From positions 8,907 through 72,906 of the forward strand of contig CAIWHP010000042.1 in assembly GCA_903912445.1 (NCBI GenBank): 64,000 nt of DNA. Reading direction: 5' to 3'. This stretch comes from an uncultured Lentisphaerota bacterium (lineage in GTDB: Bacteria; Verrucomicrobiota; Kiritimatiellia; CAIQIC01). Position numbers and translations under genes: made by a program. The notes under the pieces are model-generated. The model saw nothing but the letters and a program-made list of their open reading frames with translations, did no database searches and was not told the DNA's origin. Shown one piece after another: positions 7,589 through 63,736 of the stretch. Numbering within the stretch: the first letter of the stretch is position 1; each line of letters starts with the position of its first letter.

Positions 7589-7669
7589 TTTCCAACCATT
7601 GGAAACGGAAACAGCCGGGTTTTCCAAACCTTGGGAAAAGCCACGGAGGAGTTTCCCAAGGTTTGGAAA
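7589..7669. repeat. 17-bp dyad mini-array (3 units, period 32/32)
   Basis: TTTCCAACCATTGGAAA 7589, TTTCCAAACCTTGGGAA 7621, TTCCCAAGGTTTGGAAA 7653. Confidence 0.92.
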
Positions 7670-7763
7670 TTGCGCCAAAAACGAAGGAAGAGTGTGTTTG
7701 ACGAACAGTGGCGCGCATACTTCACAGTTGCTAAGCGGTGAAACCGATGAGCCCCGCGCAGGC

Positions 7764-7895
7764 ACTAGCTGGGAGCGGCGGCATTCCTGCCGCCGCAGAG
7801 GAACCGGCAGGCGAGGGCGTTGCATCCGGTGCTGTGGCTACGGCATGGCGGCCCCACTATGCAGGGCGGTGAGGACACCGCCCCTCCCAGCTAGT
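7764..7895. repeat. REP-like inverted doublet (GGAG-type)
   Basis: Perfect 12-bp terminal IR ACTAGCTGGGAG/CTCCCAGCTAGT, each arm with an internal hairpin. The right arm matches 34884-34916 at 31/33 nt (reverse complement). Confidence 0.7.
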
Positions 7896-8086
7896 CAGAC
7901 AGCCTCACCCTATTCTCAGAGCAATATCAAATTCTGGAGAGCTGGATCTCCCGCCCACAAAGCCATTCACATTCGGAACGCTAGGGCACGGCATCGGCCT
8001 GCGGGGCAGGCCTCAAGCGGGCAGAATTTTGGCGCGGATTGCAGGTGCGCTGCCCCGCAGCGCGATGCGTTTATAGAGGAGAAAGC

Positions 8087-10081
8087 ATGAAAACTCGTCG
8101 TCAACTGTGCTTGTGGACGTTGCTGCTGCTTGGTGGCGGCGGCGCGGCGTGGGCAGCGGCGCCGTTCCAGCCGACGGATGAGTCGCTCAGGCAGTATGCG
8201 TGTCCGGACTGGTTCCGCGATGCGAAGCTGGGCATCTGGGCGGTGTGGGGGCCGGAGTCGGTGCCGATGCAGGGCGATTGGTATGCGCGTAAACTCTACC
8301 TAAACGACGAAAAGGGCAGGGAAGGTCAGTCCATCGGCCAATCCCGCCATAACAAGTGGCACCTGGAGCACTACGGCCATCCCGCCACCAATGGCTTCAA
8401 GGACATCATTCCGCTCTGGCGTGCGGAGAAGTGGAACCCGGATGCGTTGATGGCGCTCTACCAGAAGGCGGGCGCGAAATATTTTTGCATGATCGCGATG
8501 CACCACGACAACTTCGATTGCTGGAACTCGAAGTTTAACCGGTGGAACTCGATCACCATGGGGCCGCGTCGCGACATCGCGGGCGAGTGGCAGCAGGCGG
8601 CGACGAAAAACGGGCTGCGCTTCGGCATGACGGAACATCTCGCGGCAAGCTGGTGGTTCTACGGCGCGACCAAGGGTGCGGACAAGACCGGCCCGCTGGC
8701 GGGTGTGCCCTACGATGGCAACGATCCGAAATTCGCGGACCTCTATTGGAGCGGGAACGATAAGACCGACTTCCACTATTACGGCACCAACGTGCCGCCG
8801 GCCTTCAAGCAGACATGGTTCGACCGCATCAAGGACATGATTGATCGTTATCACCCCGACCTGCTCTATTCCGACAGCCCGCTGCCCTATCCCGATGAAG
8901 TCGGCCGGCAACTGCTGGCGCATTACTACAACGACAACGCGCAGCGCCACGGCGGGAAAAATGAGGCGGTCTATAACTGCAAGCAGGAGGCGCAGGGTCG
9001 CTGGGTGCGCGACCTCGAACGCGGCGTCATGGAAGGCATCCATCCCGAACCGTGGCAGACCGACACGTGCGTCGGTGGCTGGTATTACGACGAGAAGGTG
9101 CTGGAGCGCCACGGCTACAAAACCCCGGCGCAGGTCATCCACATGCTCTGCGACATCGTCAGCAAGAACGGCAACCTGTTGCTCAACTTCCCGCCGCGTC
9201 CCGATGGCACGCTCGACGAGGACGAGCTGAAAATCCTCGACGCGATGGCCGCGTGGATCAACGTCAACGGAGAGGCGATCTACGGCACGCGTCCATGGAA
9301 GGTTTTTGGCGAAGGCCCGACGAAGCTCGGCAAGGGACGCCACGGTGGCCTCAACGACACCGGCAACTACAAGCCGTCCGACATCCGCTTCACCCTTCGA
9401 CAGGGCTCAGGGCAGGCCCACCAAGGCGGAACGCTCTATGCCATCGCGCTAGGGTGGCCCGAGGACGGCCAGCTCGTCGTGAAATCGCTCGCGCTCGCCG
9501 CTGGAAAAATTTCCGACGTTGCGCTGCTCGGTCACGCCGGCAAACTGGATTGGCAGCAGACCGCCGAAGGCCTCGTCGTGAAGCTACCCGCGCAAAAGCC
9601 GTGCGACCTCGCCTTTGCCTTCAAGATTACCGCCGTCGATTTGCAGCCAGTACCAGTGATCTATGACGGCAGCCTCACGCCTCGCGCCGACGGACGCTTC
9701 GTGCTTCCCGCCGCCGAGGCCACGCTTCATGGCGACACGCCGAAATATGAACACACCGCCACTAAGGATCACATCGGCTGTTGGGCTAAAGCCAACGACT
9801 TCGTTTCGTGGAACATCAAGCTGACCAAGCCCGGCACCTACGCCGTCGAAGTCACCTGCTCCTGCGCCGCGCCCGGCAGCGCCTTCACTGTCGAGGCCGG
9901 CGGCCAGACGCTCACAGGGAAGTCCGTGTCGACCGGCTCGTGGGAGACCTACCGCACCGACAACCTCGGCACGCTCAAGCTCGACCACCCCGGCACCATC
10001 ACCCTTGCCGTCAAACCCAAAGCCGACCCGAAATGGAAAGTCATCGGCCTGAAAGCTGTCACCCTCAAACCCATCGAGTGA
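8087..10081 (+). CDS. GH29 alpha-L-fucosidase with C-terminal CBM6/35-like domain
   Basis: GAGGAG RBS before ATG 8087 and a signal peptide. Motifs PDWFRDAKLGIW, HHDNF, LLYSD, DIVSKNGNLLLN. Confidence 0.9.
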   Translation: MKTRRQLCLWTLLLLGGGGAAWAAAPFQPTDESLRQYACPDWFRDAKLGIWAVWGPESVPMQGDWYARKLYLNDEKGREGQSIGQSRHNKWHLEHYGHPATNGFKDIIPLWRAEKWNPDALMALYQKAGAKYFCMIAMHHDNFDCWNSKFNRWNSITMGPRRDIAGEWQQAATKNGLRFGMTEHLAASWWFYGATKGADKTGPLAGVPYDGNDPKFADLYWSGNDKTDFHYYGTNVPPAFKQTWFDRIKDMIDRYHPDLLYSDSPLPYPDEVGRQLLAHYYNDNAQRHGGKNEAVYNCKQEAQGRWVRDLERGVMEGIHPEPWQTDTCVGGWYYDEKVLERHGYKTPAQVIHMLCDIVSKNGNLLLNFPPRPDGTLDEDELKILDAMAAWINVNGEAIYGTRPWKVFGEGPTKLGKGRHGGLNDTGNYKPSDIRFTLRQGSGQAHQGGTLYAIALGWPEDGQLVVKSLALAAGKISDVALLGHAGKLDWQQTAEGLVVKLPAQKPCDLAFAFKITAVDLQPVPVIYDGSLTPRADGRFVLPAAEATLHGDTPKYEHTATKDHIGCWAKANDFVSWNIKLTKPGTYAVEVTCSCAAPGSAFTVEAGGQTLTGKSVSTGSWETYRTDNLGTLKLDHPGTITLAVKPKADPKWKVIGLKAVTLKPIE

Positions 10082-10085
10082 AAGC

Positions 10086-12050
10086 GTGAGAATCACATCG
10101 TTCATCGCCGTTGCGGTATTGGCTTCAACGGTACACTCCGCCGCTTTGCAGATGCCGGTCGCCGACGGGCCGTTCAAGCCGACCGATGCATCGCTCCAGC
10201 AGTATCAGTGTCCCGAGTGGTTCCGCGATGCGAAGCTGGGCATCTGGTCGCACTGGGGGCCGGTCGCCGCGCCGGGCGGGTTCGGCGGCAACTGGTATGC
10301 ACGCCAGATCTATGTGCAGGGGACGCGGGAGTACGTGCACCACGCCCAGACCTACGGCCACCCGTCGAAGTTCGGTTACAAGGATGTGATCGAATTGTGG
10401 AAGGCCGAAAAGTTCGATCCGGACCGCCTGATGAACCTCTACGTGCAGGCGGGTGCGAAGTACTTCGTCAGCATGGGCGCGCATCACGATAACTTTGACC
10501 TCTGGAACTCGAAGCACCAAGAGTGGAACGCGGTCAACCACGGCCCGAAGAAAGACATCGTCGGGCTCTGGCGCGAGGCGGCGCTCAAGCGCGGGCTGCG
10601 CTTCGGCGTCAGCGAACATTTCGCGCGTTCCTACAACTGGATGCAGCGCAGTCACAGCAGCGACACCAACGGGCCGTTCGCCGGCGTGCCCTATGACGGC
10701 GCTGATCCGAAGTATGCCCGTCTCTATGGCCCGCCGCACGGCGACACGAGCGCGGGCTATCCCACCCATCCGCCCGTGGCGTGGAAGCAGGAATGGTTCA
10801 ACCGCATGCAGGATGTCGTGGATTCGTACCAGCCGGACTTGGTCTACTCGGATGGCGGCATTCCCTTCGGCGAGGTCGGCCGCAGTTTCATGGCGGACTT
10901 CTACAACAAAAACATGAAGGCGCACGGCGGCAGGCTGGAGGCCGTGTACAACATCAAGAAGGGCCGGGATTGCGGCGACTACGTGGAGGGGGTGGCGGTT
11001 CAGGATGAGGAGAACACCGTGCTGGCTGGCATCAAAGAGCAGCCGTGGCAGACGGACGCCTCCATCGGGACCTGGTTCTTCGTGCCGGATCTCGAGCCCA
11101 AGTGGCGGAGAACGGGGCCGGATGTCATCGTGATGCTGGCGGACATCGTGGCGAAGAACGGCAACCTATTGCTGAACATTCCGCAGCGTGGTGACGGCAC
11201 GATTGACGCGGAGGCTGAACAGGTGCTGGCCGATCTGGCAGCGTGGACGAAGGTGAACGGCGAGGCGATCTTTGCCACCCGTCCGTGGAAGATTCTCGGC
11301 GAGGGCCCGGCGCTGTCGGCCAAGAGTCGCGGTATCCGCAGGGCGGCAGACTACACCGCCGCCGACATCCGCTTCACGCGCTCGAAGGACGGTGCGACGC
11401 TCTATGCCATCGCGCTGGGCTGGCCCGCAGATGGCAAGCTGGTGGTGCGTTCGCTCGCGACAGCGGCCGGCCCGATCGGCGAAGTGTCGCTGCTCGGCCA
11501 TGCCGGCAAACTCGACTGGCGACAGAGCGCGGGTGGCCTCGAAGTAACCTTGCCCGGGGCAAAGCCCTGCGCCACCGCCAATGCCTTGAAGATCACCGCC
11601 GGCGACTTGAAGCCCGTGCCGGTGGTCTACGCCAACGCCGTGGCAGCCGATGCCAACGGACGTATCCTCCTGCCGGCCGCCAAGGCTCGGATTCACGGTG
11701 CGACGCCGAAGTATGAACACAGCGGCGCCAAGGATCAGATCGGTTACTGGAACGGGGCAGCGGATTTCGTTTCGTGGGACATCAAGGTCACCAAGCCCGG
11801 CACGTACGCCGTTGAAATCGCCTATTCCTGCACCACGTCCGGCAGCGCGTTCACCATCGAGGTCGGTGGACAAAAGCTACCCGGCACCTCCACCTCGACG
11901 GGTGCGTGGGCCACCTACCGCACCGACCAGCTCGGCCAGCTGACTTTCGACAAACCCGGCATTTATGAAATCGCCGTCAAACCCAAGGCACCGCCGAAAT
12001 GGAATTCCATCGGCCTGAAATCTGTTATCCTCGCGCCGCATGCAAACTGA
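10086..12050 (+). CDS. GH29 alpha-L-fucosidase with C-terminal CBM6/35-like domain (tandem paralog)
   Basis: Motifs PEWFRDAKLGIWSHWG, HHDNF, DIVAKNGNLLLN. Colinear with 8087-10081. Confidence 0.9.
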   Translation: MRITSFIAVAVLASTVHSAALQMPVADGPFKPTDASLQQYQCPEWFRDAKLGIWSHWGPVAAPGGFGGNWYARQIYVQGTREYVHHAQTYGHPSKFGYKDVIELWKAEKFDPDRLMNLYVQAGAKYFVSMGAHHDNFDLWNSKHQEWNAVNHGPKKDIVGLWREAALKRGLRFGVSEHFARSYNWMQRSHSSDTNGPFAGVPYDGADPKYARLYGPPHGDTSAGYPTHPPVAWKQEWFNRMQDVVDSYQPDLVYSDGGIPFGEVGRSFMADFYNKNMKAHGGRLEAVYNIKKGRDCGDYVEGVAVQDEENTVLAGIKEQPWQTDASIGTWFFVPDLEPKWRRTGPDVIVMLADIVAKNGNLLLNIPQRGDGTIDAEAEQVLADLAAWTKVNGEAIFATRPWKILGEGPALSAKSRGIRRAADYTAADIRFTRSKDGATLYAIALGWPADGKLVVRSLATAAGPIGEVSLLGHAGKLDWRQSAGGLEVTLPGAKPCATANALKITAGDLKPVPVVYANAVAADANGRILLPAAKARIHGATPKYEHSGAKDQIGYWNGAADFVSWDIKVTKPGTYAVEIAYSCTTSGSAFTIEVGGQKLPGTSTSTGAWATYRTDQLGQLTFDKPGIYEIAVKPKAPPKWNSIGLKSVILAPHAN

Positions 12051-13998
12051 TCACCCAGCTCGCGCGGAAGTTTTCCAAGGATTGGAAGACGAAGTGACCG
12101 GATTTTCCAAGGGTTGGAACTTTTCGGCAGGATTCTTCCAAGCCTTGGAAAAGTCCGCAAATGTTTTGCGCCGGGTCGGTGACCCGACCTACAGGTTCAA
12201 CGCTTTCTGTTGTAGGCCGGGTCACCGACCCGGCGTCTTCGGTTGCGCGCTGTTGGCCGTGGTGCTGGCTTGTGCGGCGCGCGCCGAGCTGACGCCGGCG
12301 CAGCAGCAGATTCTCGCGGCGCCGGTGATGCCGCCGCCCTCCGCGGAGTTCAGCTTTTCTTTTTCCGGCGGGCCAGAGTTCACCGATGCCGGGAAGCAGG
12401 CGCAGCGCGAGGCAGGCCAGACCGTGCTGCCGCTGGTGCTCACGGCCTACAGCAACGGCGCGGAGTCGGTGCGGATTCCGCCGGGCGATTACCGCTTTGG
12501 CAGCGAGCGCTGGGGTCGCGACGGCGTCCACTACGCGCTGGAGTTCTCCGGCCTGCAGCGCGATGCCGCGCATCCGTTCACGATCGACGCGACCGGCGCG
12601 ACGTTCTGGTTCGACCTGCCCGACGACCAGGCGCCGCACGCGCACTTCGCCTGCGGCCTCAAGAACTGCCGCAACATCATCTTCCGCGGCGCGACGCTTG
12701 ACCGCGGCACGCGCGGCCAGGTCGAGGGGCGCATCACGCAGCTCGACGCCGCCAACAACCGCATCGAACTGGAACTTTCGCCGGGTATCACCGTGCCGGC
12801 CAAGTTCAACGACAAGACCGAGCAGCGCATCGTGCCGTTCAAGTCCGACGGCCGCTTCTGCGCGCCGCTCTATGTGCTGCAAGCCGGCGGCGTGCACCTC
12901 AAGTACAAGAGCATCACGCCCGGCAGCGCAGCAGGCCGCGTGTTCGTGACGATGCAGGACACGAAACTTTTCGAGACGCTCCGCGACGAGCAGTGGCAGC
13001 AGACCTACGGCGAACTCGGCACGCTGAACGTCGGCGACGGGCTCTCGTGCGTCTATTCGGTGGCGTGTGGCGTGGAACTCGTCGGCAGCGAACACTGCAC
13101 GATGGACGGGCTCCGGGTGTTCATCACCAAGGGGTGGGGCGCGGAGCGCGGTGGCGTGGGCGGGCATCTCTGGAAAAATTGTTACTTCGGCCCGCGTCCC
13201 GGCACGAGCCGCTGGCAGGGCGGCGAGGGCTTCATGTTCAACGCCACGCGGCAGGGCACCACGCTTGATGGCGTCGTCATCCGCCATACGGCCGACGATG
13301 TCGCCAACGTCCACGGCTACTGGGGTCTCGTCAAGAGCCTCGCCGGGCAGCGCGTGGCATTCGAGATACCGGGCGAATTCCGCCAGACGGTGGCGAAGAA
13401 CGCGCTGCCGGGCGACAGGCTGTTGTTCCGGGACAAAAATTCCGGACGGGAACTGGGGCAGGCCACGCTCGTCGCCTTCTCCAACGACACGGCGACGGTG
13501 GATCGGTCGGTGGAGTGCTTCACGAATGCCATCGTCGAGTGGACCGATCATGAGTGCGCGAACTGGCTGATCCAGCGCTGCACGTTTCAGGATTGCTATC
13601 AACGGTTGCTGATTCAGTCTGGCCCCGGCGTGGTGCGCGGCTGCGAATTCACCCGGCTCGGCAGCAGCCTGGAAATCAACAGTGACTTCCCGTACGTCGA
13701 AGGCGGCGTCGCGCGCGACCTCACGATTGCGGACAACACCTTCACCGATGTGAACACCCGGCCCAACGGCGCGGCGATTGCGATGCACGCCCACACCTAC
13801 GGCCGCGAAGCGCCGCCGTTCGCCAACTTCGTCATCACCGGCAACACCTTCGAGCGTTACGCCGCCGCCGCCATCGCCCTCGACGGCGTCCAAGGCGCCC
13901 TTATCGCCAGCAACCGCTTCGGCCGCGCCCTCTCCCCCAGCGCCCAGCCCGTCCGCCTCAAACGCTGCTCCGCCATCCGCGAAGCAGCCAACCGCTGA
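12040..13998 (+). CDS. Secreted right-handed beta-helix protein, GH110-like (start uncertain)
   Basis: Motifs VRIPPGDYRF and NCRNIIFRG, plus a DDVANVHG motif resembling GH110. Signal-peptide h-region ALLAVVLACAARA near 12247. Confidence 0.65.
   Translation: MQTDHPARAEVFQGLEDEVTGFSKGWNFSAGFFQALEKSANVLRRVGDPTYRFNAFCCRPGHRPGVFGCALLAVVLACAARAELTPAQQQILAAPVMPPPSAEFSFSFSGGPEFTDAGKQAQREAGQTVLPLVLTAYSNGAESVRIPPGDYRFGSERWGRDGVHYALEFSGLQRDAAHPFTIDATGATFWFDLPDDQAPHAHFACGLKNCRNIIFRGATLDRGTRGQVEGRITQLDAANNRIELELSPGITVPAKFNDKTEQRIVPFKSDGRFCAPLYVLQAGGVHLKYKSITPGSAAGRVFVTMQDTKLFETLRDEQWQQTYGELGTLNVGDGLSCVYSVACGVELVGSEHCTMDGLRVFITKGWGAERGGVGGHLWKNCYFGPRPGTSRWQGGEGFMFNATRQGTTLDGVVIRHTADDVANVHGYWGLVKSLAGQRVAFEIPGEFRQTVAKNALPGDRLLFRDKNSGRELGQATLVAFSNDTATVDRSVECFTNAIVEWTDHECANWLIQRCTFQDCYQRLLIQSGPGVVRGCEFTRLGSSLEINSDFPYVEGGVARDLTIADNTFTDVNTRPNGAAIAMHAHTYGREAPPFANFVITGNTFERYAAAAIALDGVQGALIASNRFGRALSPSAQPVRLKRCSAIREAANR
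12072..12151. repeat. 17-bp dyad mini-array (3 units, period 32/31)
   Basis: TTTCCAAGGATTGGAAG 12072, TTTCCAAGGGTTGGAAC 12104, CTTCCAAGCCTTGGAAA 12135. Confidence 0.92.
12169..12235. repeat. GTAG-type REP doublet
   Basis: CGCCGGGTCGGTGACCCGACCTACA and TGTAGGCCGGGTCACCGACCCGGCG are inverted copies with 1 mismatch. A third copy is at 40588-40612. Confidence 0.82.
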
Positions 13999-14242
13999 AA
14001 GGGATAACGGCTGCAACGAGTGGCACGAGGGCCCGCCGACCAACCACCGCCTGCTGAAGCTCAAACCCGGCGCGGAAAAAGAGCTCCAAGTGACCCTGGA
14101 CGAGCTGATGGTCCAGCCGCCGAAGAACCCCGGCCGCTGCTTTCGGAAGAAGCAGGATAACCACGCAAGCATTCGAAGCTTGCGGGATTTTCTTTGAATA
14201 CCTTGTGAGCTTTTGCGGCCAGGCCTCTGCCGCGCTTCAGCG

Positions 14243-14809
14243 TTACAGCAACGCGAGCGCCTCGGCGACTTCCGCGAGCGGCAGGCCGACGACGTTGGTG
14301 TAGGAGCCGCGGATGGCGGTGACCATGTGCGCGGCGTGCCCTTGGATGCCGTAGGCGCCGGCCTTGTCGAACGGCTCGCCGGTGGCGAGGTAGGCGGCGA
14401 TCTCCGCATCGGTCAACGCGCGGAAGTCCACCTCGGTGCGCACCGCGCGGCAGTCCTCGCCCGCGCCCGTGAGCAGCGCGAGGCCGGTGATCACCTCGTG
14501 CCGGTGTCCGGCCAGCGCGCGCAGCATCGCGTGGGCGTCCGCGGCGTCGCGCGGCTTTTCGAGGATGCGCTCGCCGAGCACCACGATCGTGTCGGCGCCG
14601 ATGACGAGAAAATGGTCCGCCGCCGCGTGGTGGCGCACCGACCGCGCCTTCTCGCGCGCGTTGCGCACCGCATAGTCGCCCGGATGTTCGCCCGGCAGCC
14701 GCTGCTCCTCGTGCTCCGGCTCGATGACGCGGAACGGCCGCCCCAGCAGCGCGAGCAAATCGCGCCGCCGCGGCGAGCGGCTGGCCAGGATGAGGTCAAG
14801 GGCAGGCAT
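14243..14809 (-). CDS. maf: Maf-family nucleoside triphosphate pyrophosphatase
   Basis: Motifs LILASRSPRRRDLL, IGADTIV, DKAGAYGIQG, GSYTNVVGLP. Confidence 0.93.
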   Translation of the reverse strand: MPALDLILASRSPRRRDLLALLGRPFRVIEPEHEEQRLPGEHPGDYAVRNAREKARSVRHHAAADHFLVIGADTIVVLGERILEKPRDAADAHAMLRALAGHRHEVITGLALLTGAGEDCRAVRTEVDFRALTDAEIAAYLATGEPFDKAGAYGIQGHAAHMVTAIRGSYTNVVGLPLAEVAEALALL

Positions 14810-14841
14810 CGGCGCGAAGATAGCCGGAACGGAATTGTTTG

Positions 14842-15525
14842 TCAGTCGTCTTCGCGCGCGTATGGCCGCGCGCCGAGGTGGCGCGTGCCGTATCGCCAGG
14901 CGGCGATACGGAAGGAGACCTCGGCGATCAAGCGGTAGAGCCACACCGGCATCATCGGGCGCGCGAGCGCCTGGATGGCGCCCGCGGAGAGAGGACCGCC
15001 CGCGGCCAGCTCGTCGGCGGCGCGGTGCAAGGCCGCCGCGACCGCGTGCGTCCGGCCGTGTTCCGTGATGGCGTGGCCGGAGAGCGCGCCGCCCATGCCC
15101 AGCGCCAGGCCGCCGTCCCAGTGGAACCCGGCGCGGCGCGCGAAGCAGCGGCAGATAGCGAGCGCCGTATCGTTTTGGCTGGCTTCCGGAAAACCGCTGT
15201 TTACCACGGCGATCAACCGTTGCGCCTGCGGCGGTGTCGCGGTGCGACGCAGCGCATGCAAGCGTTCGAAGGTTTCGATCAGCGGTGCCGGCAAGCTGTC
15301 GACATACAGCGGAGTTGCCACGATCACCAGTTCCGCCGCCGCTGCGGCACGTTCCAATTCCGACCAGGAGGACGTGTTGGCGATGGCCGTACGTGCGACG
15401 TGGGTGGTCGCGGTCCAGCCACGCTTTTTCAGGCCGGCGACCAGCACTTCGCCGAGCTGCGCCGACGTGCTGCGACCGCCACGTGGACTGCCGATCAATA
15501 GAACCGCTTGGCCGGGCGCGCTCAT
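14842..15525 (-). CDS. Flavodoxin-like NAD(P)H-dependent oxidoreductase
   Basis: Motifs LLIGSPRGGRSTS, ATPLYVDSLP, NSGFPE. ATGA overlap with the upstream gene. Confidence 0.75.
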   Translation of the reverse strand: MSAPGQAVLLIGSPRGGRSTSAQLGEVLVAGLKKRGWTATTHVARTAIANTSSWSELERAAAAAELVIVATPLYVDSLPAPLIETFERLHALRRTATPPQAQRLIAVVNSGFPEASQNDTALAICRCFARRAGFHWDGGLALGMGGALSGHAITEHGRTHAVAAALHRAADELAAGGPLSAGAIQALARPMMPVWLYRLIAEVSFRIAAWRYGTRHLGARPYAREDD

Positions 15526-16082
15526 TTCCACCCCGCTATATCGAAGGCGGCTTGCAGCGTTGCGCGCGTCGCGGTGGCGCCGGCGTCCGCGCGCACGAGC
15601 GCCACGGCCGGGCGCGGCTCGTGCCAGTTGAGCGCGTTACGCGCAACCAGAGTGCGGAAAGTCTGCGCCTCTACGGCATCATCATCGCCCATCAAACCCA
15701 ATGCGCCAAAGCGCGGTTGCCGCGTGTAGCGCAGGCGGTGATGCGTTTCGCCGTTCACCGTGGAGAAGAACGGCGAAATCATCGGAATGATGCGGTCCAG
15801 CGCGCGTTTGAGCAGCGCCGAATATCCGCCGAACGTCACCGGCGTCAGCAAGATGACGCCGTCGCTTTGAACAAGCTGCTTGAGCACTTCGCGCCCGTCG
15901 TCGTCCGTTACGCAGATGCCCGGCGTCCGCAACCAGCAACCGAAGCATCCGGTACACGACGCGATAGTCAGCGCTCTCAAGTTCAGCGTTGTAGGCGACC
16001 AGCCGCGTTCGCGGCAGGCCTCCGCCAGCCACGCCGCTGCCGGCTGCTCCACCGCGCAGCCATCGATTAGGAGAATCTTCAT
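15522..16082 (-). CDS. Flavodoxin family protein (iron-sulfur flavoprotein/WrbA-like)
   Basis: CTGCFGCW..C cluster motif and TPVTFGGYSALLKRALDR. Confidence 0.82.
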   Translation of the reverse strand: MKILLIDGCAVEQPAAAWLAEACRERGWSPTTLNLRALTIASCTGCFGCWLRTPGICVTDDDGREVLKQLVQSDGVILLTPVTFGGYSALLKRALDRIIPMISPFFSTVNGETHHRLRYTRQPRFGALGLMGDDDAVEAQTFRTLVARNALNWHEPRPAVALVRADAGATATRATLQAAFDIAGWK

Positions 16083-16208
16083 GACGCCCTCCGGGCGCTG
16101 ATAGCATGCCCGTGCCGAAAATCAATCCGAAACCAGGCGGCAAAGGGGCAGCCAAGTGGGTAGCCATTGAACTTGACACGGAATGGGCCCCTTGGAGATA
16201 GTTTTGAA

Positions 16209-17009
16209 ATGACCAAAGCGATTCCTTCCATGGGCTGGCGAAGCGGGATGGTTAGCTTGTGTATGGTGCTTGGCTGGGGGCTGCCCTTGTGCGTTCAAGC
16301 GGACCTGGTGACTTCCTTTGAAGGGTTGACTTTGGATCCCAATCTGTACCTTGACGTTCCCGACCCTGACATTGGAACGATCGAACTGGATACGGTCAAC
16401 CACAATCTCCGGTTTACCGGCCCGGGTGCCGATTTGTGGGATTGGCGCAATGGCCTGCCCTATGCTTGGACGGACATCCCGCAGGTCGGGGTGGGCGGAG
16501 TATGGCGGGCTGAAACCGAGGTGCAATATTATGATACATCCGAGCGGGGGCGCATTGTCGGTCTGACCACCTATGCGGGGCCCGATGGCGCCGGCGGTGC
16601 CGCCATGGGGCAGGAGTTTACCTTTGGCCTCGACCACTGGGACTGGCCCAACGGGGTCTGGGTCCAGGGGCTAGGGGACAACCAGCCTGGCGATTCCGGG
16701 AATCTGGCGAACGAATTGATCACCGACCTGGTGGATTTGAGAATGGACGTGACCGTCGGCGACCTGAACTTCAATACGTACGATTTCTATTATAAGCAGT
16801 GGGATGATGTTGACTGGACCGGCCTAGGCACCATCAGTTATGTCAATGAAGACAAGCGTGTCGCGTTGTTTTTCAAGGGCAACGAGATGAATGTCTCGTT
16901 CAATTATTTCAATGTCACGGCCGTGCCCGAACCCGGTTCGATCGCGATGGTCGGCATCGGGGCTCTCAGCCTGTGGCTGGTTCGCCTGCGAAAACCAGCC
17001 CGGGCCTGA
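16209..17009 (+). CDS. PEP-CTERM sorting domain protein
   Basis: Signal peptide. C-terminal VPEPGS, transmembrane helix, then basic tail RLRK. Confidence 0.85.
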   Translation: MTKAIPSMGWRSGMVSLCMVLGWGLPLCVQADLVTSFEGLTLDPNLYLDVPDPDIGTIELDTVNHNLRFTGPGADLWDWRNGLPYAWTDIPQVGVGGVWRAETEVQYYDTSERGRIVGLTTYAGPDGAGGAAMGQEFTFGLDHWDWPNGVWVQGLGDNQPGDSGNLANELITDLVDLRMDVTVGDLNFNTYDFYYKQWDDVDWTGLGTISYVNEDKRVALFFKGNEMNVSFNYFNVTAVPEPGSIAMVGIGALSLWLVRLRKPARA

Positions 17010-17100
17010 AGTCCGCTACTGGCTGGGGCCGCGAACTGCAAAGCCTTTGCTTTTTCCGGCTGTCCCGTTAAGCTTCGCGCAACCAACCGGAGCAACGACC

Positions 17101-18540: not shown

Positions 18541-18611
18541 CCAGCGCCGTTGCCGGAGCTGGTCAAGATTTTGCATTCGCAGCGACCGGGTGGCCTGCTA
18601 TGGTGCGCGCC

Positions 18612-21869: not shown

Positions 21870-21891
21870 CACAACCTTTCGGGTCTATGAA

Positions 21892-21939
21892 TTTCCAAGG
21901 ATTGGAATATGATCGCGCCGTTTTCCCAAGGCTTGGAAA
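21892..21939. repeat. 17-bp dyad doublet (period 31)
   Basis: TTTCCAAGGATTGGAAT 21892, TTCCCAAGGCTTGGAAA 21923. Confidence 0.9.
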
Positions 21940-21955
21940 TGACCGGAGACACCGA

Positions 21956-23548: not shown

Positions 23549-23582
23549 TTTTCCCAATAATTAAAACAATGAAGGGCATCAA

Positions 23583-28499: not shown

Positions 28500-28525
28500 C
28501 GCGGGACTGGAAAGCCCCGCCCACA
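28500..28525 (-). repeat. GTGG-type REP-like hairpin
   Basis: Reverse strand reads TGTGGGCGGGGCTTTCCAGTCCCGCG (tetranucleotide plus imperfect palindrome). Confidence 0.55.
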
Positions 28526-28563
28526 AAGCAGGGGGCCGAGGGCGGGTCATGCGGCGTACAGCA

Positions 28564-28612
28564 TTTCCAATGTTTGGGAAAAGAGCCTGTTGCGGTTTCC
28601 AATGCCTGGAAA
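28564..28612. repeat. 17-bp dyad doublet (period 32)
   Basis: TTTCCAATGTTTGGGAA 28564, TTTCCAATGCCTGGAAA 28596. Confidence 0.88.
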
Positions 28613-28685
28613 CGGCTTTCCGCCATGCAACCGGTGCACGGAAATAGGCTTGCGTGCGGGACGCGGCGGGCGTTATGCAGGGCGC

Positions 28686-37616: not shown

Positions 37617-37630
37617 AAAAACCTTTCTTT

Positions 37631-37763
37631 CACCACAGAGGTTCACGGAGGTCCGCGGAGGTCACGGAGTTTCCAAGGATTGGAAAAGCAACTGACTGTT
37701 TTTCCAGGCCTTGGAAACCGCTGCCTCTGTGAACCTCGATCAGCCTCTGTGACCTCTGTGGTT
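37631..37763. repeat. Composite element: outer inverted repeat of CACRGAGGT subunits enclosing a 17-bp dyad doublet
   Basis: Left arm 37631-37669, right arm 37724-37763. Inner units TTTCCAAGGATTGGAAA 37670 and TTTCCAGGCCTTGGAAA 37701. Confidence 0.88.
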
Positions 37764-40435: not shown

Positions 40436-40587
40436 CGGGGCTCCTTCACACATCCGTGCCATCAAGGCGGCGAAATTAGCACAGAACCGCGCAGTTTTCC
40501 AAACCTTGCCGACATCGGGAACCTTGTGCCAGACGCCGCGTGCGATCACGCGGCCTGCAAATTCATTTATTCACATTGGTTTTTCGT

Positions 40588-42267: not shown

Positions 42268-42269
42268 TT

Positions 42270-42317
42270 TTTCCAAGGTCTGGAAAATAAGGCGTTCGGG
42301 TTTCCAATGCTTGGAAA
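42270..42317. repeat. 17-bp dyad doublet (period 31)
   Basis: TTTCCAAGGTCTGGAAA 42270, TTTCCAATGCTTGGAAA 42301, between convergent genes. Confidence 0.92.
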
Positions 42318-42341
42318 ACTTTCCGGCGGGTTGGAAGGGCC

Positions 42342-52877: not shown

Positions 52878-55739
52878 TCAGAAAACTTTCCCGAAATTGC
52901 GCTCCTGTGGAATGGCGACGCCGCCGGGCATGTCCATGCGCGGACGGGCCTGCAGCGCGGCTTTGCCTTTTTCCAGCGCCTGGAGCAAGGCCTGATAGAC
53001 CGGGTCATGGGTGTCGCGGAACAGCGGCGGCTTGCGTCCCTCGTCGGCCGTTGCAAGGCCGAGGCCGCCGGCTTCGCGCGCGAGGTGCGCGTTGAGCACA
53101 CGGCTGAATTCCGGCCGCGTCAGGTTGAGCCAGCGGTTGTGCGGATAGAGGCCGTGGCGCGCGCGGCGTGTGCCGGCGCCAAATTCACCATGGCACGAGG
53201 CGCACTGCGCGGCGAACACCGCCCCGAACTCGGCGAACCACGGTTCCGGCTGCGGGGGCACGCGCTGGTTGTTGGCCACGAAGTGCCACGGGTCGCGGCC
53301 GCCCTGCGTGTGGGGGCGGCTCATGTCCCACGTGCCGTAGTACGGCGCATTGGCGTCGATCCACGCGAACACGCCCCGGCGCTCGACATCGGTGAGCTTC
53401 ACTTCATGGTGATTGGTCTCGACCAGCGTGGTCAGCCGGCTGATCCACGAACCGCTGCCCATGGCGGGGAACACGCCGGTCGGACCGGGATTGATGAAAT
53501 AATAGTCCACCATCCGGCGTGCCATCAAGTGGTCGAAGGACATGTTGAAGAAGCGCGTCTTGTCGCCGGACAGATCAAGGTCGGCCTTGGGCGCGCGGCC
53601 GGAGTGGCAGGCGACACAGTGGCGGTCCCACACCGGCTGGACCTGCCGGACGTAGTCCACCGGCCCCGCTCCCCAGGGCGGCGGAACAAGCGCGTCCGGT
53701 CCGCGCGCGAGCCGCGCGGCGCTCTTGGTCGAGACCGGCGGCGCCTGGAGCCGGTCCTCGTGGCAGCCGACGCACGAGACCTTCTCGCCGGCCGTGACCT
53801 GCGTCACCGAACCCATGCGCTGGATTTCCTTGCCGCGCGCGTCGAGCGCGATGAAATAGAGTTCGCAGTTCGAGGGCGCGGTGAAATAGGCCGAACCGTT
53901 TGCGTCCACGGGGGCCTCGCCGAGGATTTCCTTCACATAATAGCTGCCGTAGCCGATGAGCGGATAGTGATCGTGGAAGCGCGGGCCCTCGGTGTTCCAT
54001 TTCTTCGGCGTCTGCCGCAGCACGCGCAGCGCCTTGACCGCGCCGCGCGCCACGCCCTGCTGGAGCAGGCCCTGGTAGACATCCTGCACAAAGAACGTGC
54101 CCATGCCCGGTTCGACGGGGCATTGCCCGCCGATGACAACGCGCGGCAGTTCGCGCGGCGCGAGCGCCACCGGCGCGAAGAAGCTTTCGCCCTCGCGCGC
54201 CCACACGGGGAAGCGCGTGCCGTCGTAGCGGCAGAGGCAGATGCGGAAGCCCGCCGCGGGCCGCGCGTCATTGCCAATGGCGGCGAGGAACAGACCGTCG
54301 GCCAGCGGCCACGGGTCGGTGGCGGCCTGCGCGTAGAAGATATCGCCCGGTCCCCAGTTCGTGTCGCGCCACGTCCGGCCCTTGGTGGGCTGCAGCGGCG
54401 TCTCGAACGTCACCTTGCGGAGGCCCGCGAGCTCCTCGAGCCCGGCGCTACGGTCCACGAGTGCGATGTCGCTGATCGGCGGCAGATGGTGGCCCGCCAT
54501 CGTGATCAGCACCTGGTCGGTGCCCGGCACGGGCCGCCCGCCGTAGCGCGAGTTCGGGATGGTGAGCGTGTTGCCATAGTAGAGCTTCAGGTTGCGGCCG
54601 TCGGGATGGATCGTCCAGAGGCCCTGCCAGGAGAAGATGTTCTTGTCGTTATATTCCCAGCGCGAGCAGAGGATTGTGCCATCCGGCAGCACGGCGGGCG
54701 TGCAGGTGCAGAGCGTGGTGAAATCGATCCGCCGCAGGTTGCCGCCATCGGCGTCGCAGATGTGCAGCGCCGCCGCGAGAAAATCCTGGCACAGCGAATA
54801 GCTCTCGACGCGCGACGAGCAGAAGACGATGCGGCCGTCGGGATAATAAACCGGATTGAAATCATGGTACGGCCCCTTGGTGACCTGCCGCAGCCCGGTG
54901 CCATCGGCGTTGATTTCCCAGACGTGAAAAGGCTGGTCGTTCGCTTCCTTGTAGCTCATCAGCAGCTTCGTGCCGTCCCAAGAGGGGCTCAGGTCCCAGA
55001 TAAACCCATCCGTGGTCTCGAAGATGACCTGCGGCGGCTGCTGGGGGTGCGCGGGGTCGAAGACCATCAACGCCGAGCCGCGGTCGGTGCGGTGCGAAAA
55101 CATCGTCGCATTCGTGCCGCGCAGCCCGTGCGAACGACGCCGGACGAATGCGATACGCGGCAGCTTGCCAACCTGCGCCGCGCGCGCCTGCTCATAGAGC
55201 GCCGCGAACTGCGGCAGCGGTTCCTGCCTCTGCACCATCGAGGTCGGCAGATACTTCTGCGCCAATCCCTGCACGGCTTTCCGCGCCGTCGCATCGTTCG
55301 TGGCCGTCGCCCACTCCAGCCAGGGCACGCCGGCGCACGCCTCGAATGTCGCGAGCTGATCGGGCTGGCGCGCCTTGACCTCGTCGCGCAGGCCCGGGGC
55401 CGGACTGGCGTTTTGCAGCGCCAGCACCTTCGCCCGCCCCGCCAGCATCGTCGCGGGGAAATCCGGCGCCTCCGCGCGCGCAGCAAACGCGCCGGCCAGC
55501 AACAGCCAGAGCGGGAGGGCGAGCCGCCATGCAAACCGCCGCTGTAGCGGCGGTCTGTGACCGCCGCCTGCAACCGCCCTCCGCCACCCCGCCCACAGAA
55601 GACATTTCCAGCCAACCCGTGAGGTCGGTTTTCCAAGCATTGGAAAAGGAAACCGGTGGTTTTTCCAAAGCTTGGAAACCGGTGAAACGTGAGCACCGAA
55701 CAGCGAGGCCCGGAGAGAGGTTGTGTGCAACGACAGCAT
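52878..55739 (-). CDS. Beta-propeller/hydrazine synthase alpha middle-domain-like protein with three CxxCH motifs (start uncertain)
   Basis: TolB-like repeats (DFNPVYYPDGRIVFCSSR) and ILGEAPVDANGSAYF..YFIALD..GEKVSCVGCHE, plus CVACH and CASCH. Confidence 0.75.
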   Translation of the reverse strand: MLSLHTTSLRASLFGAHVSPVSKLWKNHRFPFPMLGKPTSRVGWKCLLWAGWRRAVAGGGHRPPLQRRFAWRLALPLWLLLAGAFAARAEAPDFPATMLAGRAKVLALQNASPAPGLRDEVKARQPDQLATFEACAGVPWLEWATATNDATARKAVQGLAQKYLPTSMVQRQEPLPQFAALYEQARAAQVGKLPRIAFVRRRSHGLRGTNATMFSHRTDRGSALMVFDPAHPQQPPQVIFETTDGFIWDLSPSWDGTKLLMSYKEANDQPFHVWEINADGTGLRQVTKGPYHDFNPVYYPDGRIVFCSSRVESYSLCQDFLAAALHICDADGGNLRRIDFTTLCTCTPAVLPDGTILCSRWEYNDKNIFSWQGLWTIHPDGRNLKLYYGNTLTIPNSRYGGRPVPGTDQVLITMAGHHLPPISDIALVDRSAGLEELAGLRKVTFETPLQPTKGRTWRDTNWGPGDIFYAQAATDPWPLADGLFLAAIGNDARPAAGFRICLCRYDGTRFPVWAREGESFFAPVALAPRELPRVVIGGQCPVEPGMGTFFVQDVYQGLLQQGVARGAVKALRVLRQTPKKWNTEGPRFHDHYPLIGYGSYYVKEILGEAPVDANGSAYFTAPSNCELYFIALDARGKEIQRMGSVTQVTAGEKVSCVGCHEDRLQAPPVSTKSAARLARGPDALVPPPWGAGPVDYVRQVQPVWDRHCVACHSGRAPKADLDLSGDKTRFFNMSFDHLMARRMVDYYFINPGPTGVFPAMGSGSWISRLTTLVETNHHEVKLTDVERRGVFAWIDANAPYYGTWDMSRPHTQGGRDPWHFVANNQRVPPQPEPWFAEFGAVFAAQCASCHGEFGAGTRRARHGLYPHNRWLNLTRPEFSRVLNAHLAREAGGLGLATADEGRKPPLFRDTHDPVYQALLQALEKGKAALQARPRMDMPGGVAIPQERNFGKVF
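55542..55566 (+). repeat. GTAG-type REP
   Basis: CTGTAGCGGCGGTCTGTGACCGCCG. Related copies at 61388-61438. Confidence 0.75.
55630..55678. repeat. 17-bp dyad doublet (period 32)
   Basis: TTTCCAAGCATTGGAAA 55630, TTTCCAAAGCTTGGAAA 55662. Confidence 0.93.
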
Positions 55740-59208: not shown

Positions 59209-59227
59209 GCCGCGGGTTCCGGCGCGG

Positions 59228-60721: not shown

Positions 60722-60854
60722 GCGTCGGACTGTAGGGAGCACGACCCGCCAAGGCAATCATGGAACACGTCCGGCGGTCCACGGGGGACGACCCCTTTCA
60801 TCTTGACCCTGCCGCGGGAAGCGCGAGAATCCGGCGCAACATTCGGGAGCCAAC

Positions 60855-61331: not shown

Positions 61332-61387
61332 CTGCCAAGTCCCGGCAGGAGCTGGTTACAAAGCCGTACTTGAGGTGGGGCCTTCTG

Positions 61388-61438
61388 CTGGAGCGGCGGC
61401 CTGTGGCCGCCGTCGGCGACCACAGGTCGCCGCTACAG
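61388..61438. repeat. REP doublet (GGAG/GTAG)
   Basis: CTGGAGCGGCGGCCTGTGGCCGCCG-T-CGGCGACCACAGGTCGCCGCTACAG, between convergent genes. Confidence 0.78.
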
Positions 61439-61524
61439 AGGCAACAGGCCACAGAGCCCACGTGTGCCCGCACACATTGTGTCCCTGTTCGGCGCTTTAT
61501 CCGGGGCTTGAATATTTTGGCGCG

Positions 61525-63615
61525 TCAATCGCCGGTGCGCTCGACACGGAGCCAGAGGTGGCGCAGCGGCGCGGGGATCTGGGCGGTGAGGACATGGCCC
61601 TGCAATTCGGCGGCGCCTTCGCCGGCGAGCGGGGTGAGACGGTATTTTCCGGCCGCGAAGAGCGGCAGCTCGGTCCGCCAGTCGGCGCGCGCGTTGTTCT
61701 CGCGGAAGAGCAGCAGGTAGCCGCCGCGCCGGTCGGCGGCGACCGAGGCGAAGCCGGTCCACGCGACGCCGTCCGGCGCGGCGCCGATCGGCAGCAGCGT
61801 GCCGCCCAGCAGCTGCGCGCGTTCGCGCTTCCACACCGCGACGAGCGGCGCGAGTTCGGCCACGTAGTCCTCCGGCAGGTTCGAGACCTCGAACCAGCCG
61901 AGCGGGTTGGCGAACATGGTGATGGCGAAGAGCGTATCGGCGCGGTAGCGCGCGGGCGCGAGCGGATCGTCGGCATATTTGGCGTCGTTGCGCCGGTTGT
62001 TGAGCAGCTCCATGCGCAGGCGCAGCGGATCCACATAGTGCGCCAGCTTCCACAGGTTGCGCAGCGTCTGGTGCGGCCAGTAGCGGTGGAAGTCGGTGTA
62101 GCGGTTCTCGACGAACAGCGGGCCGACGTGCGGCAGGCCGAAATAGCCCGGACGGATTTCTGCGGTCACATCGAGATCGAACACGACCTTGCCGCCGGAC
62201 TGCTCCAGCACGCGATCGAAAAAGCGGCGCAGATTTTGTTCCGTCGCCGGCACCGTGGCCTTGACGGAGTCGATCTTGAAATAATCGATGCCATCCTTCT
62301 GGTGTAGCTCCAGCAGGCGGCCGGCGTCGCGTTCCCAGTTGGCCATGCCGTTGCTGGAATCCGGCCCAAACCACAGGCCGAACTTCATGCCCTGCGCGCG
62401 CGCCGCCTGGACGACCGGCGCGAGCCCGCGTGGGAAGCGCTGCGGATCGGGCTGCCAGAAATGCGGGTCGGCGGCCCAATAACCGTCCCAGACGCCCTTG
62501 CCGCGCGCGGCGGCGGAGTTCGCCGTGCGGCCCTTCTGCCAGCCATCGTCCACCTGCACGATGTCCACGCCGAGCTTGGCGCCGGCGGCCACTTCCTTGA
62601 GGATGAACTCCTCGTTGATGCGCGCGTCGCGCGAGCGGTCGCCCCACGTGTTGGACAGAAACAGCCCGTCGCGGGCCGGCTCGAAGCGGCGCAGCTGCCG
62701 CTGCCAGCTTTGCAGCGCCGCGATGCGGCCCGGTTCGCCGCCGGTGTAGGCGAGCACGACGAACGGATAGCCCTGCCCCGCGAAGCGCACCTCGCGCTTC
62801 GACGGCGTGACGACCGCGTCGGGGCCGCTCTTGACCGGCCGCGCGTGCGGCAGCGGCGCCTGCTTGAGGAAGACCAGCCCCGCGCCGGTCAGCGGATCCT
62901 CGACCGCGAAGATGTTGCCCGCCAGCTTCAGCGGCGCCTCGTTCGGCATCAGCAGCCACTCGGTCTCGAAGGCCAGCTCGTTGTGGTTGTCGGTCTGGTC
63001 CATCAGCGTCGCCTGCACGAAGCGCAGGTGCTGCGGCGCGAGGGCGAAGAGTTCCAGCGCATCGCCGGAGTCCGGCGCGGTTTTGTCATCGCCCGCGCCC
63101 TCGATGCCCGAGGCCGTCGCGTTGCTGGCCTTCTTGGCAGGAGCGGCGGCGTGGCCGGGTTCGCCGCTCGCGGTGAAGCTGATGCCGATGCCGTGCGCGG
63201 CCGGAAATATTTGGAGCTGGTGGGCGAAGCTGGCGCGGCCGGGCGCGGTCACGGTGATGGTCAGCGCTTCCTCGGCGACCGGGTTGGCGCGCCCGGTTTG
63301 CGCGGCGATGGTGACGGGCCGGGTTTCCTTGGGCACATTTTCGCCGGGGCTGGGCGCGGGGCGCGCCGCGGGCTTGGCGAGCCATTCGCAGTTCGCGTCC
63401 TTGTCGCGGAACGAGGTCGCCAGCAACAGGCCCTCGGAAATTTTCCACGTGCGCTCGATGTGCGCGTTGCCGATGACCAGCCCGGTGGCGCTCCACTTCG
63501 CATAGCAGCCCTTGAACTCGGCCTGCCCGGGCTCCGCCGCCCACCCGCCCGGCGCCAGCAGCAGCGCGAGCGCCAGCCCGAACCATCTGCCAAAATTCTG
63601 TTTGTTTGTTTGCAT
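61525..63615 (-). CDS. GH36-like alpha-galactosidase
   Basis: Signal peptide. Motifs SNTWGD, QVDDGWQ, RFPRGL, KFGLWF, YFKID. Confidence 0.85.
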   Translation of the reverse strand: MQTNKQNFGRWFGLALALLLAPGGWAAEPGQAEFKGCYAKWSATGLVIGNAHIERTWKISEGLLLATSFRDKDANCEWLAKPAARPAPSPGENVPKETRPVTIAAQTGRANPVAEEALTITVTAPGRASFAHQLQIFPAAHGIGISFTASGEPGHAAAPAKKASNATASGIEGAGDDKTAPDSGDALELFALAPQHLRFVQATLMDQTDNHNELAFETEWLLMPNEAPLKLAGNIFAVEDPLTGAGLVFLKQAPLPHARPVKSGPDAVVTPSKREVRFAGQGYPFVVLAYTGGEPGRIAALQSWQRQLRRFEPARDGLFLSNTWGDRSRDARINEEFILKEVAAGAKLGVDIVQVDDGWQKGRTANSAAARGKGVWDGYWAADPHFWQPDPQRFPRGLAPVVQAARAQGMKFGLWFGPDSSNGMANWERDAGRLLELHQKDGIDYFKIDSVKATVPATEQNLRRFFDRVLEQSGGKVVFDLDVTAEIRPGYFGLPHVGPLFVENRYTDFHRYWPHQTLRNLWKLAHYVDPLRLRMELLNNRRNDAKYADDPLAPARYRADTLFAITMFANPLGWFEVSNLPEDYVAELAPLVAVWKRERAQLLGGTLLPIGAAPDGVAWTGFASVAADRRGGYLLLFRENNARADWRTELPLFAAGKYRLTPLAGEGAAELQGHVLTAQIPAPLRHLWLRVERTGD

Positions 63616-63687
63616 GGCCCGCATCCTAGCCGGAGCCCGGCGGGAACAAAAGCGCGCAAAAGGAGGCCCCGCCGCCGCCGGCAGAAA

Positions 63688-63736
63688 TATCCAAATCTTG
63701 GAAAAAACGCTGGCATCTTTTCCCAAACCTTGGACA
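63688..63736. repeat. 17-bp dyad doublet (period 32)
   Basis: TATCCAAATCTTGGAAA 63688, TTCCCAAACCTTGGACA 63720, between divergent genes. Confidence 0.85.

Follow-up and report, generated by a model that had tools for sequence, protein, structure and literature searches.

In Escherichia coli, repetitive extragenic palindromic (REP) sequences and bacterial interspersed mosaic elements (BIMEs) spread and are targets of host proteins (IHF and gyrase, for example), and in Rickettsia palindromic elements of about 100–150 bp with a conserved internal sequence are found in frame within genes. Helically phased protein sites are also known: NrdR boxes lie 31–32 bp apart, NtrC-type 7-N3-7 dyads 32 bp apart and Lrp/FFRP sites about three turns apart, Lrp/AsnC being the textbook three-turn binder. 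Here, we describe a family of short dyads, repeated at a distance of 31 or 32 bp, in a 64,000-nucleotide stretch of DNA (the window) from an uncultured Lentisphaerota bacterium, corresponding to positions 8907–72906 of contig CAIWHP010000042.1 (G000:C42:8907-72906) in a 6.66-Mb draft genome (G000; 64.8% GC, 280 contigs). We tentatively favor, at a little short of an even chance, the reading that the arrays are cooperative same-face sites for a putative dimeric protein that binds double-stranded DNA.

We searched for units with the pattern TTCCAAN3TTGGAA, allowing at most 1 mismatch and giving positions for the 15-mer cores. The window contains 17 such matches, compared with 0.02 on average and never more than 1 in shuffled sequences, and an 18th unit at 63721 has 2 mismatches. 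The first-pass annotation of the window had listed 18 units in 8 clusters, and all of these are present (Table 1); its spacers of 14–15 nt between 17-mers, all ten different, likewise agree with the steps of 31 or 32 bp and with the spacer sequences. In the whole genome, 1354 units were found at up to 1 mismatch and 1759 at up to 2 (802, 552 and 405 with 0, 1 and 2 mismatches, respectively). They were grouped into 996 loci, consisting of 422 singles, 416 doublets, 131 triplets, 23 quadruplets and 4 quintuplets, and the 574 multi-unit arrays thus hold 2–5 units each. The annotation had also expected a genome scan to give a sharp peak at 31–32 bp. In fact, distances of 31 bp (241) and 32 bp (349) dominate with 590 close pairs, and only 44 other neighbor distances fall below 200 bp, mostly 62–64 bp, where the middle unit was missed, or 68 bp. 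Aligned profiles showed that the conserved unit is a perfect 19-bp palindrome, TTTTCCAAG-S-CTTGGAAAA (T4CCAAG-S-CTTGGA4), whose arm positions are 0.9–1.0 conserved and whose less conserved center is mostly G-S-C in this genome, and that the 12–13 bp between 19-mers carry almost no information. The earlier description of conserved arms around a variable central 3 nt was therefore right for the arms, whereas the center is more uniform than claimed and the unit measures 19 bp rather than 17. Contigs from independent public lake-water runs, which possibly include the source sample, run across the arrays at 7589 and 12072 and show no difference; no indel polymorphism was seen at these two arrays in the short low-depth contigs from four lake-water DNA runs.

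The spacers are essentially unique in sequence. Among the 737 spacers of this genome 732 are distinct, and the five pairs that are identical stem from overlapping contig ends, paralogous upstream regions or one local duplication. Nearest-neighbor spacers with up to 2 mismatches were slightly more frequent than in a column-shuffled control (94 vs. 10 of 737). Spacer similarity within arrays was 0.383 as compared with 0.394 between arrays (0.428 and 0.408, respectively, in the congener G002), and this comparison gave no signal of array growth by tandem duplication in either genome. We also found little sign of polarity. The center bases of neighboring units paired as GC in 216 cases, GG in 177, CC in 155 and CG in 154, so that orientation is near random and the weak excess of G-then-C centers does not amount to the alternating unit orientation of a BIME or REPIN. 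In tandem intergenic regions, read on the sense strand, 366 units had G and 349 had C at the center, and the spacers had no G/C skew. Spacer composition is itself dyad-symmetric, running from A-rich through GC-rich to T-rich, and a search for a hidden oriented spacer motif by orientation expectation maximization yielded 6.25/6.92 bits as against 5.5/5.8 in controls, a weak asymmetry on which such a motif was rejected. Variants within the arms are predominantly transitions.

The family was next followed through 301 genomes, a sample rather than an exhaustive set, over the phylum Verrucomicrobiota. A doublet with a 14–15 nt gap was present in 19 of them: in 4/4 genomes of the genus, 5/9 of the rest of the order, 10/87 of the rest of the class and 0/201 outside the class. 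The arms and the period are thus common to several families of one Verrucomicrobiota class. Exact copies of the 17-mer numbered 515 in this genome, 714, 1014 and 162 in three congeners, and 33–455 in other families of the order. In one genus (g5), the exact 17-mer was absent from 8 of 9 genomes and present as a single copy in the other, while its sister genus g10, which belongs to that family too, has 431–455 copies. In the genus g16, 4 of 9 genomes bear the motif. The center triplet is lineage-specific, being GSC in this genome and TGA/TCA or GGT/ACC elsewhere, with arms and period constant. The congeners G002 and G003 show the same 31/32-bp spacing, and four genomes of other families contained 0 pairs with gaps of 1–13, the sole larger gap (45) reflecting a skipped middle unit. 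Linkers are unique in G000, whereas g10 has linkers with a consensus in fixed 22-, 30- and 31-bp classes, the 22-bp and 30-bp spacings being additional to those of our genome, and its composite arrays, such as U-22-U-30-U-31-U-31-U-31-U-22-U, occur in many copies. For example, seven-unit arrays of the g10 genome G016 (e.g., C1:7081-7264) have outer steps of 22 bp and inner steps of 30–31 bp, with the linkers AAAAAGT, AATCGGGCSG.. and AAATTTTCGGCAT, and are present hundreds of times in this 3.2-Mb genome. Among 2.9 million IMG/VR viral contigs, only 2 carried an exact doublet with a 14–15 nt gap, and these may be prophage or host fragments of the class.

To follow single arrays, 386 kb of G003 (27 loci) and 400 kb of G002 (39 loci) were compared with our genome, to which the genes of G003 are about 85–88% identical and those of the more distant G002 about 78%. 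When 27 arrays of G000 were placed in G003, the unit number was kept in 7, higher in 1 and lower or zero in 19; arrays specific to G003 and absent from G000 also exist. Unit densities per Mb with 0, 1 and 2 mismatches were 41/62/52 in G003, 120/83/61 in G000 and 290/188/95 in G002, and G003, which is the motif-poor outlier among its congeners, looks like a lineage with a decaying family. At orthologous gaps between genes of G000 and G002, arrays were present in both genomes at 6, in G002 only at 5, in G000 only at 2 and in neither at 26 (odds ratio 15.6, p 0.003), and the shared arrays have intact arms and spacers of equal length and unrelated sequence. Direct observation covers the anatomy of the units, their phasing, their positions, their conservation across the class and the fact that some lineages have retained arms and spacing over the long term. 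Unit number shifts by whole periods: the array at 7588 has 3 units in G000 and 2 in G003, and for the one at 55629 the orthologous position holds 4 units in G002 and none in G003. The array at 12071 has 3 units in G002 as well, with the first spacer in common, and the array at 21891 is kept in G003 including its spacer, with a change from 31 to 32 bp through an indel. Furthermore, the tandem pair of fucosidase genes 8039-10081 and 10086-12050 is missing from G002, so that the upstream fucosidase gene directly precedes the ortholog of the 12071 array (G002:C88), and the junction of this indel lies exactly at the first unit of an array.

Taken together, the conserved half-sites, whole-turn spacing (22 and 30–32 bp), free spacers of fixed length, lack of polarity and class-wide arms point to a dimeric reader of double-stranded DNA. 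Each 19-bp dyad would take one dimer on two half-sites of 8–9 bp, whose centers are about one helical turn apart, leaving the center of the dyad unconstrained. Neighboring dimers would sit on the same helix face, three turns apart (31–32 bp) or, in g10, also two turns apart (22 bp), and would touch each other, so that spacer length would matter and spacer sequence would not. In agreement with this, traits of dimeric operators are present, namely a dyad with conserved half-sites and whole-turn spacing whatever the spacer sequence. The least conserved part of the unit is what would be the loop of a hairpin, and a dimer site in double-stranded DNA thus fits better than a reader of RNA or single-stranded hairpins. 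The shared presence of arrays at orthologous gaps of G000 and G002, the preference for sulfatase genes described below and the failure of the arrays to fit rival families further support this reading. If the putative protein occupied about 1000 loci per genome, it would act like a nucleoid-associated protein or a global regulator.

The location of the arrays relative to genes was examined with crude gene calls (long open reading frames (ORFs) with high GC3, starts set by codon log-odds); distances to starts are accordingly approximate, which also limits the favored reading. At least 481 of the 574 multi-unit arrays are intergenic, and the remainder lie mostly in over-extended 5' ends of ORFs. 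Among intergenic regions of at least 100 bp, arrays were found in 305/1301 tandem, 77/501 divergent and 68/373 convergent regions, and about one intergenic region in five holds the family. They frequently start less than 20 bp past a stop codon or end 10–40 bp ahead of a start codon. In addition, 192 small ORFs adjoin arrays; among those listed are ribosomal proteins and a LexA-like gene, and many are spurious. The arrays of the window are given in Table 1. Their setting among genes of unrelated function, as noted in the first-pass annotation, was confirmed by Pfam matches to three fucosidases, a sulfatase, aceE/aceF and GNAT.

Table 1. Arrays of the dyad family in the window, with core positions, period and gene context.
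Feature	Position	Cores	Period (bp)	Context
3-unit array	7588..7670	7590, 7622, 7654	32, 32	between two tandem alpha-L-fucosidase genes
3-unit array	12071..12152	12073, 12105, 12136	32, 31	3' of fucosidase gene 10086-12050
2-unit array	21891..21940	21893, 21924	31	17 nt 5' of sulfatase ATG (21956)
2-unit array	28563..28613	28565, 28597	32	between Pel9A-like and beta-helix/GH141-like genes
2-unit array	37669..37718	37671, 37702	31	aceE (37775-40549, -)/aceF (36303-37646, -) intercistronic
2-unit array	42269..42318	42271, 42302	31	fills ~75-bp convergent intergenic region
2-unit array	55629..55679	55631, 55663	32	5' of minus-strand gene 52878-55739 (HZS_alpha/cytochrome c-like)
2-unit array	63687..63737	63689 (1 mismatch), 63721 (2 mismatches)	32	~50 bp 5' of start codon near 63785

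The first array begins 16 bp past the stop of gene 3841-7572, and the array at 28563 lies ~75 bp 5' of the ATG at 28686 of the beta-helix/GH141-like gene. The array at 42269 begins at the TGA of the GNAT gene (41779-42267, +) and faces the opposing ORF 42342-43886 (-); its predicted RNA fold has -19.3 kcal/mol (z -2.15). The 953 aa encoded by the minus-strand ORF 52878-55739 include the middle domain of hydrazine synthase alpha (PF18582, 5.5e-18) together with a PD40 repeat and a cytochrome c motif, and a large plus-strand ORF overlapping this one has no Pfam match. Other repeats occur near the arrays. A dispersed repeat of ~135 bp at 7764-7905 has more than 20 matches in G003 at 76–88% identity and is absent from the orthologous G003 intergenic region, and positions 7945-7965 and 28505-28530 hold remnants of another inverted-repeat element (TTGTGGGCGGGAGCTCC...GGAGCTCCCGCCCACAA), which is complete in the orthologous G003 intergenic regions (L124/L130) and has 6 near-matches in G000. 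As for the aceE-aceF array, tandem copies of a 10-bp sequence (CCACGGAGGT or its complement) at 37633-37669 and 37724-37760 form an inverted pair around it; inverted 10-bp runs also surround the array at G000:C198:901, and the arrangement is found in just 2 of 571 arrays. A larger host element with inverted ends gave no signal; inverted CCACAGAGG-type repeats enclose no more than 2 arrays, one of them that of aceE-aceF.

A subset of units lies in coding DNA. The 19-bp unit is stop-free in all six frames, giving FSKAWK, FPRLGK and FQGLE(K). Fourteen pairs of units at a distance of 68 bp pointed to a variant, present in 19 copies, whose unit is split by a conserved 36-nt insert, TTGG-CAGCCCAAGGCTGCC CGTCTCGCAAAGCTCGGCTGG-AAA (e.g., C48:3132, C110:20075 and C273:21969). 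The insert is in frame and has its own 7-bp hairpin, and the split-unit copies lie, in either orientation, in the N-terminal signal regions of sulfatases and encode ...GSQGLPVSQSSAGK...; one such leader is of twin-arginine translocation (Tat) type followed by ...FPVVGS...GFQSLEKRKPNILL.... Our genome has 155 Sulfatase (PF00884) matches, of which we used the 137 genes with a domain match starting at model position 1–2. A unit or array was found within 150 bp 5' of the domain start in 46/137 sulfatases, as compared with 344/2483 genes of at least 300 aa, a 3.5-fold enrichment (odds ratio 3.5, p 2e-9). Units less than 60 bp 5' of the sulfatase domain were in the FQxLE frame in 22/22 cases (p 3e-11), and those 70–148 bp 5' of it were in the FPxxGK frame in 18/24 (p 4e-5). 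Genome-wide, unit frames are mildly skewed. A general coding role was rejected, since the frame of the downstream gene was open through the array in 149/331 cases vs. 157 and 144 for the other frames; the downstream frame is thus no more often open than the others, indicating that most arrays are non-coding. Coding use is nevertheless real for a subset of arrays, which leader peptides have absorbed or tolerate. Many sulfatase genes of this genome stand, with fucosidase genes, in long same-strand clusters (contigs C273, C195, C182 and C212), and its predicted gene content is like that of a fucoidan degrader. The earlier view that the family is no pathway regulon thus holds for the unrelated flanking genes, while the 3.5-fold enrichment at sulfatase 5' ends, in frame within signal-peptide coding regions, calls for its qualification.

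We then tested the arrays against known kinds of repeats and elements. They share with REPs and BIMEs that they are high-copy short palindromes in extragenic DNA (1354 units, at least 481/574 arrays intergenic). REP palindromes, as outlined in a published account (PMC3733652), carry a conserved GTAG or CGTC tag at one end. Such a tag is absent from the unit profile, which has T4/A4 flanks only. Nor did we find a link to REP-associated tyrosine transposases (RAYTs) in G000: none of the 5 Y1_Tnp genes has a flanking array, and the sole units within 3 kb are ~1.7 kb from one gene. Among 50 genomes of the class, PF01797 (Y1) occurs in 21/22 that bear the motif and in 22/28 that do not; the genome with the densest motif has two weak matches and one motif-bearing genome none. 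A separate, canonical GTAG-tagged REP (GTAGGCCGGGTC-N3-GACCCGGC) is present in 189 copies in G000, and it is this repeat, not the TTCCAA arrays, that flanks 2/5 of the RAYT-like Y1_Tnp genes (contigs C235 and C241). Membership of the arrays in a REP/RAYT family was rejected on these grounds. An inverted pair of the GTAG REP occurs at about 12170-12236, directly 3' of the 12071 array.

Other element types fared no better. Miniature inverted-repeat transposable elements (MITEs) were rejected, as terminal inverted repeats (LCS>=8) were found in 24 arrays vs. 29 in the control of 571, target duplications in 4/571, and there was no conserved body. Half-sites acting as insertion sequence ends were also rejected, isolated TTTCCAA/TTGGAAA numbering 361/350, which is background (29–544 for permuted 7-mers). 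The 574 dispersed loci of 2–5 units, with 12–13 bp spacers and no polarity, do not form CRISPR arrays, cas genes not having been searched for. A scan for intrinsic terminators and sigma-70 promoters called none of the three arrays in 5000-24000, and the T run precedes the stem while the A run follows it. The covariance models of Rfam 15 gave 0 matches in the window at the gathering score, and listings and abstracts of the literature contained no description of the motif. As a partner protein, Lrp/AsnC found no support, being present in 49/50 genomes of the class irrespective of the motif, and its two copies in G000 are not linked to arrays.

How far does the reading as phased sites for a dimeric protein extend? 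Bound at gaps between stop and start codons, in 5' leaders and in the first codons of sulfatase genes, the putative protein would be a roadblock or occluder of transcription or of translation initiation rather than a classical upstream activator, and, to judge by the positions in operon spacers, convergent regions and leader peptides, its role would at most be that of a roadblock or an architectural protein. The first-pass annotation had proposed phased sites for a cooperative, genome-wide protein. The phasing, conserved arms, absence of orientation and preserved spacer length are in line with this, whereas no such protein was identified; binding itself, its cooperativity and an effect on expression are inferred. 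The analogy drawn there with matS, parS and NBS sites is weak, since those do not form phased arrays and the present ones lie inside transcription units such as aceE-aceF. Several observations weigh against the reading. The partner search, in which only Lrp/AsnC and Y1_Tnp were profiled, found no protein that tracks the motif. Exact 17-mer counts range from 0 to 1014 among relatives, with a nine-genome genus essentially devoid of the motif, which would be unusual for a core chromatin protein. Identity between G003 and G000 is 66% in the arms (421/636), 60% in the centers and 55% in the spacers, as compared with 65% in non-coding flanks, and many arrays are decayed or gone in one of these two species; arm identity equal to that of the flanks, together with the array losses, indicates that individual sites are not strongly constrained everywhere. 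Arrays in convergent regions and inside operons have no obvious operator job, and the consensus linkers of g10 make its arrays resemble copied composite elements. Finally, G-U-compatible variants on the sense strand are in mild excess (161 vs. 119) and, of 158 double variants, 11 are compensatory, both of which hint at some constraint at the hairpin level.

These points bear on what else the arrays may be. The chief alternative is a BIME-like selfish or neutral repeat family, spread in trans by some enzyme or by recombination between units, an explanation that we regard as possible and, on balance, somewhat less likely than the favored one. The repeats would then be tolerated in intergenic DNA, operon spacers and signal-peptide regions, perhaps forming incidental mRNA hairpins, and the arms would reflect the specificity of the mobilizing enzyme. 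Such a family would suit the similar rates in tandem, divergent and convergent regions and inside operons, the stop-free unit in frame within ORFs as in the Rickettsia palindromic elements, the patchy distribution with huge differences in copy number among relatives, and the fast turnover relative to G003 with its own specific arrays. The slight excess in nearest-neighbor spacer similarity, the hundreds of g10 composite arrays with consensus linkers and the coincidence of indel or synteny breakpoints with arrays, as at the fucosidase junction of G002, are also in its favor. However, there is no Y1/RAYT link, the RAYT genes going with the GTAG REP, and neither terminal inverted repeats nor target duplications were found; the spacers are unique without a tandem-duplication signature, isolated half-sites are not enriched, and almost no viral contigs carry a doublet. 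In particular, pasting of a master copy cannot yield arms diverged by ~5% beside unrelated spacers of fixed length. The new selfish repeat class offered in the first-pass annotation as an alternative thus gains from the turnover, the copy-number range and the g10 composites and loses from the absence of any transposon hallmark. By analogy with E. coli BIMEs, which both spread and are host-bound, a selfish origin and a role as binding sites need not be mutually exclusive. In a further, improbable reading, an oligomerizing protein would read the dyads and, like a ruler, promote the creation or conversion of new dyads exactly three (or two) turns away in resident DNA. Such conversion would give perfect arms beside unique spacers of fixed length, no transposon hallmark, decay upon loss of the system and the center "dialects"; the system, a new one restricted to one Verrucomicrobiota class, would coat gene boundaries, and the 5' ends of genes for secreted polysaccharide-degrading enzymes, in a chromatin-like manner.

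A function at the RNA level, in which an RNA-binding protein or RNase would bind the transcribed hairpins, each with a stem of 8 bp and a loop of 3 nt, and these would set mRNA stability or translation, notably of secreted enzymes, appears quite improbable to us. Most arrays do lie within transcription units, often 10–40 nt from a start codon or directly past a stop, sulfatase mRNA 5' ends are enriched for them, and the stable predicted fold (-19.3 kcal/mol), the G-U-compatible transitions and the compensatory doubles would all be expected of a hairpin. On the other hand, the arm sequence is conserved class-wide beyond pairing while the loop is most variable, both orientations are equally frequent with no strand asymmetry, Rfam gave no match and the arrays are not terminator-like. 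Moreover, a 31–32 nt register with free linkers lacks an obvious RNA rationale, whereas 22 and 31–32 bp are whole turns of DNA. It is very improbable that molecular drive without site-level function accounts for the arrays, the unit being a sequence resembling DNA uptake sequences or uptake signal sequences (DUS/USS), or one favored by conversion, that accumulates in situ wherever tolerated. Accumulation in situ would explain the unique flanks and spacers, and the about 1000–1700 copies with unique flanks, a motif kept over a higher taxon with center dialects by lineage and decay in some lineages (G003), and the restriction in coding DNA to particular frames are traits in which DUS/USS are similar. 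Uptake biology, however, predicts no strict 31–32 bp arrays, and a perfect palindrome of 15–19 bp is hard to make by point mutation.

The same arms and three-turn register are thus found again in several families of a class of polysaccharide degraders that has been little studied and is for the most part uncultured, and none of the repeat classes tested (REP/RAYT, MITE, CRISPR, terminator and Rfam) fits the arrays. If a partner protein exists, it would be a major new organizer or regulator of these genomes and may be tied to the expression of the enzymes, sulfatases and glycoside hydrolases, by which fucoidan-type carbon turnover is driven. If there is none, a repeat that propagates without a known transposition hallmark, keeps its helical phasing and invents new spacers would be mechanistically new. 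Either way, the family is directly testable, with a defined 50-bp probe, a spacing prediction and both motif-rich and motif-free genera in one family.

Compared with the described systems, the arrays are most like REPs and BIMEs in that hundreds of short non-coding palindromes stand within transcription units as small mosaics, with copy numbers variable among relatives, and the consensus linkers of the g10 arrays add to the resemblance to BIMEs. They differ in being perfect symmetric unoriented 19-mers without a GTAG/CGTC tag or a RAYT link, and the linkers of G000 are unique in sequence and fixed in length. With the arrays of NrdR, Lrp and NtrC sites they share palindromic dimer sites with a free center, a three-turn distance between centers and a dependence on the length rather than the sequence of the spacer. 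Those systems, however, comprise a few to some hundred promoter sites, whereas the present family occupies ~1000 loci including convergent regions, operon spacers and the 5' ends of coding regions, and its motif differs from the NrdR, Lrp and NtrC consensus sequences. Like Rickettsia palindromic elements, the units can lie in frame in coding genes and leave the genes unbroken, but they are 19 bp long, stand in phased arrays and are mostly non-coding. In CRISPR arrays, too, a palindromic repeat alternates with spacers that are unique in sequence and constant in length; here, the repeat is only 19 bp long, and the spacers evolve in place between species.

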